DNA of 58,256 nucleotides, the filler included, from Platydemus manokwari (taxonomy: Eukaryota): the NCBI GenBank assembly GCA_037951405.1. It is 4 parts of 4 records of this genome, joined end to end, with 100 filler letters (N's around TTAATTAATTAA, not from the genome) between each part and the next. Parts side by side here need not be neighbours in the genome. Positions count along the whole stretch, not along the records: positions 25,260 to 37,555 come from JBBMOY010206672.1; 3 more parts are not named here. One strand, 5' to 3'. Each line of letters starts with the position of its first letter. Within the stretch, counting starts at the first letter, position 1. The notes under the pieces were generated by a model. The model was not told the DNA's origin, did not search any database, and saw only the letters and a list, made by a program, of their open reading frames with translations. The translations under genes and the position numbers were made by a program. Shown in pieces: positions 30,058 to 32,062 of the stretch.

Positions 30058-31203
30058 TTACATCGGTTTATATGCACTACTGCATATCATTTTGTTATTC
30101 GTGATCACTCCTGTCTTTTTATTTTCCTCTTGCCTTCTTATTATGTTCCTTCCTATATTTGTGAGGTGGCTATCTCTTATCCGTGCTTCCTTGATGTCTC
30201 TCTCCCCTGTTGCTTTTAACATAATATTTACGAAGGCTTCTACCGCATTTATTTCTAATATTGATTTTTCATCCTTACGTTCTGGTATTCGTGATAATGA
30301 ATCTGCATTGGCATTTGATTTTCCTGATCTATACACTATTTTTATATTATGATCTTGTAGCTTAAGTGCCCATTGTATTAGCCTGCTCGATGTGTCCCTA
30401 TGCTTCATAAGACTCTCTAATAGCCTGTAATCAGTTATTCTTATTCAACTCCCTATAATTCACACATAATCGCACTTCTCCATCTTTCTTCTTTACTGGA
30501 ACCATATATGTCTTATATGGTGGCGAACTTTTCCTTATAAATCTGAACGCTTCCATGTGCCGTATTTGCTTTTCTGCTTCTTCTAATATCTTGTATGGCA
30601 TCCTTCGGCTTGGTAGCTTAATAGGTGTCTCATCTGTCATTTCTATCCTGTGTTTTATGACTTTCGTCGTCCCTACATTATATTCATGTTTTCCATAATA
30701 TCGTCATATTTGTCTATTATCTCTTGTAATCTCTGATTTTCTTTCTCGGTTAAATTTTCTTCTGCTATTTTGATCTTTGGATAGTGTTTTGGATAGTGTT
30801 CTCCAAATACTGCAAATTGATTGCTATTAATTACCTTAGCTTTTACACATCTTCCTAATACCATTCCCGTTCGCAATATTTTGATATTGTTCCCGTGGTT
30901 GGTAACTCTTAATGGATAATATCCATCCTGTGCTCTTGCTAAAACCGAACTCATCTGAATCTCATCATCTATCTGTCGTGGTTCGTTCATTCGTGGCTTT
31001 CACCGGAATCATCAACACGCTTTCAAATCTTGCTGGTAACCGAACTATCTCTTGTATTCTTAGCTTATCGTCTTTATGCTGCATTGTTTGTTTATATGAT
31101 ATTTGTAACGCGTTAAATCCAGGACTACTTCTGTTAACTGTCCCAACAAATCCATTCCTATTAGTATGTCGTTTAATCTTTCCGTCACCACCTTGAATTC
31201 GTG
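30058..31203 (-). pseudogene. pol: Gypsy pol remnants: protease C-half, linker, RT N-terminus, RNase H C-terminus
   Basis: Protease: DILIGMDLL. RT: KHRIEMTDETPIKLPSRRMP..VPVKKKDGEVRLCVNYRELNK. RNase H: ITDYRLLESLMK..SSRLIQWALKLQDHNIKIVYRSGKSNANADSLSR. The RT core (YxDD) and the integrase core are missing. Confidence 0.92.
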
Positions 31204-32062
31204 AAAGGAAAATATTGCTCCTATTTCCTGGAATCTTCCATATAGACTCTTAAATAGTCCTTTTGTTGCTTGATTGAAATGATCCGCCGATAAAAAGGCT
31301 TCATAATTTAATGTTCCGTCTGGGTTTCCTCCTAATATTCGTTTTACCATATTCATGATTACTTTTTCTCGTTGTATTGGGAACACCATATGTTTTCGTG
31401 CTTTCTCTATATCTTCCGCTGCGTAAGTTCCACTTTCATCCATATCATTAATTGGTTGAAATTCTATGTTCCCTGTTACTCCTGAGCTCTTTAGAATTAA
31501 TATATCCGCTCTTGATTTCTTATCTTCCGTCGACATCCATCTTCCATCATCTGTTTTAAATACTGGATCCATAACATTTGAACACGCGTCTATTCTTGGG
31601 GCATTGTAATCTTAGCTCAAGATGATTCTTGTTACTGGTAGTAAAAATACTCTCTTGTATATGACTGACATCTCTTTGGTGCAGTATTCATGTTTTCTGA
31701 CCACTAAGTTGTTTACCATTTTATACTGGAAAGTGTAAATGACTTTTACATTCCATTGCTTTCTCAAATAAAAATTCAGATTCTTGATATACATACATTT
31801 CCTTTGGCCCTGACTGCGTAATGTTTACTGGATATGCCTCTGGGCATTTTTCAATGTCTAATAGAGAATAATTCTTTCCCCATCGTGGTTTGCTGCAATC
31901 ATATCCACTAATTCCGGCATTTGCTCCCCCTATACTGCTTATTACGCATATTGCGAATAACGTCTGGACTATGGTTGCCAATGTAGACCCTGCTCCCCGT
32001 ACCGGTTGTTCACGTTCTGGCTTTTTACTCCCTTTAATAACGTAGTAACTACTGGATTCCAT
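31204..32062 (-). pseudogene. Chuvirus-like (class III/gB-like) envelope glycoprotein, internally deleted
   Basis: A signal peptide is followed by GISGYDCSKP..YSLLDIEKCP..VYQESEF..ECK. Later segments are VVRKHEYCTKEMSVIY..FLLPVTRII and C..MDPVFK..GRW..SGTY..DIEKARKHMVFPIQREKV. These parallel chuviral G motifs (AYDC, ISLLDVxxC, CYxELPV, FLxPxTRI, GIY..MFPxER). Confidence 0.8.

Follow-up and report, generated by a model that had tools for sequence, protein, structure and literature searches.

A decayed Ty3/gypsy copy in Platydemus manokwari with a gB-type envelope gene between gag and pol, and an env-protease join that is most likely a deletion scar

Background

In the window analysed here (the whole stretch of 58,256 nucleotides of Platydemus manokwari DNA), a chuvirus-like glycoprotein gene (G, or env) lies upstream of pol and is read in one frame into the C-terminal half of a protease. 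The locus raises the question, left undecided in the preliminary description of this DNA, of whether such an arrangement is a real gag-env-pol architecture or a deletion that joined two tandem copies, and, in either case, whether the env/protease frame is itself a feature of the architecture. Our reading, to which we assign a probability of about 0.87, is that the locus is a decayed Ty3/gypsy copy with a gB-type env between gag and pol, and that a deletion within this copy most probably left the frame in which env and the protease C-half are joined.

Results and discussion

The element and its remnants

The window consists of four contigs of AT-rich eukaryotic DNA, separated by N spacers with a short palindromic linker (11383-11482, 25160-25259 and 37556-37655), across which contigs need not adjoin. 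The element lies on the contig 25261-37554, and its 26-37 kb part is richer in GC (0.34-0.38) and is strongly skewed between strands, as a single long coding unit on the minus strand would be. The following remnants and junctions were recognized, in the order in which the minus strand is read:

36965-37111, minus strand: gag remnant with one CCHC zinc knuckle (translation; tblastn to the gag knuckles of relatives P0032, P0043 and P0046, E 0.001-0.012)
36353-36793, minus strand: weak ubiquitin-like segment after gag (tblastn to P0032 411-549, E 0.039; profile of relatives, iE 0.054)
32020-32209, minus strand: possible BCL-2-like remnant directly before env, frameshifted (position and a GGW motif only)
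31748-31990, minus strand: env N-terminal piece (PF24664 7-79; tblastn up to 53% identity, E 7e-13)
31746-31748, minus strand: deletion junction 1, with a frame break; the env core lacks about 305-325 codons
31204-31746, minus strand: C-terminal part of the env ectodomain, ending where the transmembrane (TM) region starts (PF24664 426-552; profile of relatives 392-569 of 633, iE 1e-42)
31203-31204, minus strand: deletion junction 2, in frame by chance; the env TM helix, tail, spacer and protease N-half with its catalytic motif are missing (at least 183 codons)
31060-31203, minus strand: C-terminal third of an aspartic protease, then a frame break and stop (profile and position)
30440-31059, minus strand: protease-RT segment and first RT motif, Ty3/gypsy type (profile of relatives, iE 4e-24)
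30280-30440, minus strand: deletion junction 3 and RNase H tail; RT and RNase H have lost about 302 codons (tail iE 1e-17)
30060-30280, minus strand: deletion junction 4 and an integrase C-terminal motif (30077); about 345-370 codons are missing, and with them the entire zinc finger and core of the integrase
27950-29700, minus strand: post-integrase tail with four hydrophobic peaks at 29658, 28890, 28771 and 28005 (hydropathy)
26428-27675, minus strand: open frame of 415 codons, the longest of the element, at its 3' end
26046-26228, no strand assigned: tandem repeat of a 66-bp unit (2.8 copies), near the 3' end

The gag, env and pol frames are interrupted by four large deletions and by many stops and frame breaks. 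A Pfam scan of whole frames, with stops read as X, gave no match, and the matches reported here came from scanning separate pieces. A search for an LTR pair or primer-binding site gave nothing: the 12.3-kb contig, which contains a truncated copy between assembly gaps, lacks direct repeats at its termini. The copy is dead, in that no anchored env and no active protease, RT or integrase is possible.

On the gag side, the knuckle lies at about 37040-36965, and the element is likely to be 5'-truncated near 37.17 kb, because no capsid domain was found upstream of it. The gag/ubiquitin-like (UBL)/SET region that the preliminary description placed upstream of G includes a CCHC knuckle; its UBL part is weak and without a Pfam match in 36353-36793, and its SET part, at 34541-34852, has no Pfam match. 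The BCL-2-like remnant likewise has no Pfam or pairwise match and a profile score of 1.9 bits, while the relative P0025 has a Bcl-2 domain (PF00452, E 0.00096) directly before env. Matches to BIR, MATH and ankyrin were absent from the Pfam results for the window pieces scanned.

The envelope glycoprotein

Env survives as two separate stretches that match a gB-type, chuvirus-like glycoprotein of the Monjiviricetes (PF24664), on the minus strand between 31990 and 31204. Residues 9-135 of ORF 31060-31611 match positions 426-552 of the 653 positions of the Monjiviricetes_fusion profile (E 4.6e-14, 51.8 bits, cut-off 27), and the profile search that had been proposed as a check for a chuviral or class III fusogen thus returned a match above cut-off; residues 43-119 of ORF 31721-32092 match positions 7-79 (E 1.6e-3, below cut-off). 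The N-terminal piece comprises a signal-like internal hydrophobic stretch (from 31984, hydropathy 2.19; seven of nine relatives are also above threshold) and the first ~60 residues of the mature gB-type glycoprotein. The C-terminal piece contains a stop at 31612-31614, and the frame breaks at ~31747, where the two pieces are 13 codons apart as against 317-339 codons in 10 of 11 relatives (the 11th was not measurable). The contig of another copy continues unlike the window beyond 31745.

The window pieces are too incomplete to fold, and P0025 (E 5e-14 to the window piece) was used instead. The model of this protein (27-row alignment, mean pLDDT 73.6, pTM 0.50) finds herpes gB throughout the top ranks of the PDB (E 9e-13), with low TM-scores (0.17-0.35), and chuvirus-like G ranks first among viral models (E 1e-39); a feature search with the same protein returned PF24664 clusters at 0.96. 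The class III type is therefore seen for the family through a predicted fold, and is carried to the window env, as a putative class III protein, by homology. In this respect the chuvirus-like class III identity put forward for G at the outset is supported, in the profile match as in the fold of P0025.

In a tree of 180 columns, which omits 9 short hits and holds no true chuvirus or Burro row, the window env forms a long branch among the env rows of polyproteins and is separated (100/99) from two stand-alone glycoproteins of insects and one other row, with low resolution for three near neighbours among the 30 hits. A stand-alone endogenous viral element of Chuviridae was considered and rejected, as G lies in line with gag and pol, and in this tree, without a true chuvirus row, it falls among the polyprotein env rows. 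Thirty-eight pattern matches among viral contigs included no relative of the window env by tblastn, and a word-based search of the env piece against longer proteins gave 188 candidates, none of which scored.

Env precedes pol in relatives

The env piece was searched against 1.84 billion representatives, yielding 30 relatives, of which 14, chosen mostly for length, were scanned for domains. Env and protease occur in one chain in ten of these 14 at E<=0.001 and in an 11th at E 0.0018, and env is N-terminal to the protease in all 11; the remaining three have no pol domain. The full succession env, protease, RT and RNase H is present in six chains (three hits and three cluster members), five of which extend to integrase, and env after integrase was found in none of the 14 scanned relatives or the cluster members. 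In P0032 and P0046 gag domains precede env. One of the relatives, P0036 (HBK71150.1), is a 2627-aa env-pol polyprotein filed as a Flavobacteriaceae MAG protein, and is likely to derive from a eukaryotic contig in a bacterial bin.

The pol remnants of the window agree with this backbone. The best PDB match of the RT remnant is Ty3 RT (E 9.7e-6, in a PDB set that may not include a BEL/Pao RT), and the RNase H tail matches PF17917 (E 0.017), which bears out the Gypsy-type RT and RNase H recognized earlier; identity is 34-48% to relatives whose pol has RVT_1, RT_RNaseH, Integrase_H2C2 and rve domains. The protease piece at 31212-31120 is weak alone (positions 72-102 of 103 of the relatives' protease profile, iE 0.059), but it is located where a protease would be expected, ahead of the inter-domain segment and RT. 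An integrase profile search over the element gave no match.

These comparisons indicate that the env-before-pol order is native, as read from decayed copies and from relatives that are ~30-35% identical in the env C-piece. The real gag-env-pol order entertained in the preliminary description is accordingly upheld by 11 of the 14 scanned relatives, with env first in one polypeptide, and by two other copies. The other option, two tandem gag-pol-env copies joined by a deletion that placed the upstream copy's env ahead of the downstream copy's pol, would fit the canonical errantiviruses, in which env is described as lying 3' of pol (PMC13524379), and a copy riddled with deletions; yet the gag-side region leads straight into env without an intervening pol or LTR remnant, env comes first in each of the 11 relatives that have a pol domain and never after integrase, and two other copies with other junctions keep the same order, with no env past the integrase tail. 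The joining of tandem copies is not needed because the relatives, another copy in the sequencing run and an older remnant in the window all repeat the env-first order, and we regard it as extremely improbable.

The join between env and protease is most likely a scar

The minus-strand ORF 31060-31611 reads ...YGRFQEIGAIFSF and then HEFKVV...DILIGMDLL in one frame, and both this frame and the position of G between the gag side and pol, as first described, were recovered by translation and by PF24664. On the minus strand YGRF lies at 31242, QEIGAIFSF just before the join, HEFKVV at 31203 and DILIGMDLL at 31170. From the env end to the RT motif the window has 258 residues, as against 441-1760 in all six relatives with RT. 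In all 12 relatives that were measured, the ectodomain's conserved end leads into a hydrophobic helix (1.79-2.41), whereas the window value at the helix position, 1.36, is that of a protease strand, with no helix. The first catalytic-type protease motif occurs at +131 to +464 past the ectodomain end in 11 of 12 relatives, and none is present in the window frame. The contig of another copy tracks the window env to exactly 31204 and then departs, its last 50 letters not fitting. Because relatives hold more residues between env and RT, the TM helix and the catalytic half are missing, and another copy departs at 31204, the env/protease-C-half fusion is most likely a deletion scar within one copy rather than a new protein or an architectural feature. 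The frame is kept at only one of the four junctions, and since a random junction would preserve it in a third of cases, its preservation at junction 2 can be put down to chance.

The openness of 183 codons across the join could be taken as a sign of a functional chimeric gene of env ectodomain and protease C-half that has been kept, for example, as a secreted restriction factor. Against this, neither a start nor a signal lies upstream in the joined frame, which is severed from the signal peptide by the frame break at ~31747 and the stop; roughly half of the ectodomain is missing from it, as are the TM anchor and the catalytic motif; and no other copy among the contigs listed has the join. We consider such a chimera very unlikely.

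Three further deletions, of ~300-370 codons each, remove the env core, the RT/RNase H core and the integrase, none of which the preliminary description states, including the loss of ~305-325 internal codons from env. The spacing at junction 3 is 28 codons in the window as against 330-334 in six of six relatives, and at junction 4 it is 80 codons as against 423-450 in five of five.

Other copies in the sequencing run and in the window

In the one sequencing run found to contain this DNA (run X1, possibly its source), 3399 contigs align to the element, which belongs to a multi-copy family with many different deletions; no RNA data set with this DNA was listed. At least 15 joints of internal deletions are listed from this run, with 42 more and a further 3 in a second listing, and 12 of the listed joints carry 2-37 extra letters. 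Such filler letters at joints are typical of polymerase-theta end joining. One contig of single-copy depth joins env (31738-31495) to the start of RT (30637) through a deletion different from that of the window.

These data also bear on the reading in which the order is native, and the 31204 join and the three other gaps arose through short-read assembly skipping the conserved, highest-copy cores. All four gaps do take out the most conserved cores, the element contig sits between N spacers, only 0.79 of the sampled words of 29500-34500 are present in the one run found, and among the contigs listed none bridges the window's own 31204 junction, which is seen in the assembly only. However, single-copy-depth contigs carry many other internal deletions, which argues that deletions are real and common in the family, and contigs at single-copy depth agree with the window letter for letter over long stretches. 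An artefact of assembly is thus unlikely, and genuine deletion within one copy is preferred.

Elsewhere in the window, an older remnant at 5558-4803 (minus strand) contains an env TM/tail segment (5558-5279) followed by a protease N-half (4940-4803), with env again first. Together with a remnant at 43958-44428 (plus strand) it forms an inverted pair, 71-85% alike, of a related element. A third env remnant at 51082-49771 (minus strand) is heavily decayed and retains the middle of the glycoprotein (PF24664, E 4.9e-5).

The host-side sequence includes a divergent importin alpha gene at 45498-46971 (minus strand), with best matches of 37-41%, mostly to nematode records; an ATG17-like exon at 23746-24536 (minus strand; E 2.7e-4); and a CENP-B-type DNA-binding domain at 55868-56116 (minus strand), probably of a pogo/Tigger transposon. 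Among 106 further host-side frames scanned, only an IBB, a second env remnant and the CENP-B domain matched.

The post-integrase tail and the 3' end

The four peaks of the tail are read as two signal-peptide/transmembrane modules. Tails past integrase are present in all five relatives in which integrase is reached (P0028, P0036, P0054, P0056 and P0067), with 2-3 signal- or TM-like peaks, the likeness being shown by hydropathy and not by sequence. This suggests that the tail peaks represent putative accessory membrane proteins. A profile search of the window detected no env remnant past the integrase tail. Several protease-like domains occur in one polyprotein, including past integrase, with six stretches in P0056 and at least two in each of P0032, P0028 and P0054.

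The 415-codon frame was blank in Pfam, PDB and homologue searches. Its likeness to a DEDD exonuclease, seen by eye, was rejected, given these blank searches and a poor single-sequence model (pLDDT 56, mostly helical).

A model of the ancestral polyprotein

The ancestral element may have encoded a single polyprotein with the order gag, UBL and BCL-2-like segments, signal, env, TM helix, one or more proteases, RT, RNase H, integrase and membrane tail. Held between the internal signal and the TM helix, the env ectodomain would project into the ER lumen as a loop; gag and pol would stay in the cytosol and be freed by signal peptidase and the element's own protease. Env is a putative class III fusogen that might have served cell-to-cell spread, and the four segments would have been lost later in this copy. 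Certain nematode ERVs described by Sacco and colleagues reportedly have a continuous gag-env-pro-pol frame.

Comparison with known systems

With no relative above ~35% identity in the env C-piece, the element represents a new, divergent, multi-copy and decayed family, the layout of which, env before pol, is already known. A chuvirus-like env upstream of pol on a Gypsy backbone has been in the literature since 2019, and the locus alone changes little. It does point to a set of polyproteins of 2,300-4,800 aa, whose shared membrane-protein-like tail past integrase and repeated proteases bear on the processing and targeting of gB-type retroelement fusogens. A bolder proposal, which we hold to be rather improbable, is that the window and the metagenome polyproteins form an undescribed Burro-like clade, possibly of a host phylum from which env before pol is unreported, in which a gB-type fusogen and up to six protease-like domains would be accompanied by one or two post-integrase type I membrane proteins that bind the receptor on behalf of the fusogen, in the way that gH/gL partner herpes gB.

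The expectation that env lies only 3' of pol, and that a chuviral env occurs only with BEL/Pao elements, is outdated by the accounts given in PMC13524379 and PMC6431247. The mosquito BEL/Pao elements with a Chuviridae-like glycoprotein (Dezordi et al. 2020, PMC7642597) are described as having a glycoprotein of the same family; unlike them, the window has a Ty3/gypsy pol and an env that precedes it. Capture by a BEL/Pao element, with a BEL/Pao pol and env 3' of integrase, was accordingly rejected as a candidate, pol being Ty3/gypsy and env lying before pol in the window and its relatives alike. Non-canonical nematode ERVs in which ENV and POL are flipped are also on record (Sacco et al. 2022, as cited in PMC13524379).

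The giant Ty3/gypsy elements Burro and GYPSM1 are treated by Arkhipova and Yushenova (2019, PMC6431247). Burro is described as an element of about 30 kb with long LTRs and a planarian host, in which env lies in frame between BCL2 and the protease, and was called the first env between gag and pol. According to the same account, its gag has CCHC, ubiquitin/SUMO-like and BCL-2-like motifs, its env matches mononegavirus fusion glycoproteins, PR-RT-RNase H-IN follow in one ORF of 4,900-5,100 aa, and decayed fragments occur in Dugesia japonica; as far as its description of the element goes, it makes no mention of tails past integrase or of repeated proteases. Like Burro, the window element has env between the gag side and the protease, and its relatives reach 4099 and 4844 aa with matches to BCL-2 (P0025) and ankyrin (P0056). 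It differs in that the window is without BIR, MATH or ankyrin matches, no LTR pair was found around the truncated copy, and its UBL and BCL-2 segments are weak. In layout the element probably works like Burro, the two being likened by description and not by sequence.

A close correspondence in lineage features is also seen with the GAG-ENV-POL errantiviruses, Ty3/gypsy elements with a gB-type env that are described from Nematoda, Bryozoa and Platyhelminthes (Chary and Hayashi 2026, PMC13524379). That account reports up to 215 intact copies in Schmidtea mediterranea, as well as 114 gypsy elements with glycoproteins homologous to the chuvirus-like one of mosquito BEL/Pao elements. The window element shares with these errantiviruses, as they are described, the Ty3/gypsy pol, the gB-type env resembling Chuviridae G and the position of env before pol. 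It differs in that those elements are intact whereas the window copy is decayed, such that it has the Gypsy pol, the gB-type env and the gene order that mark the GAG-ENV-POL errantivirus lineage, and is not intact.
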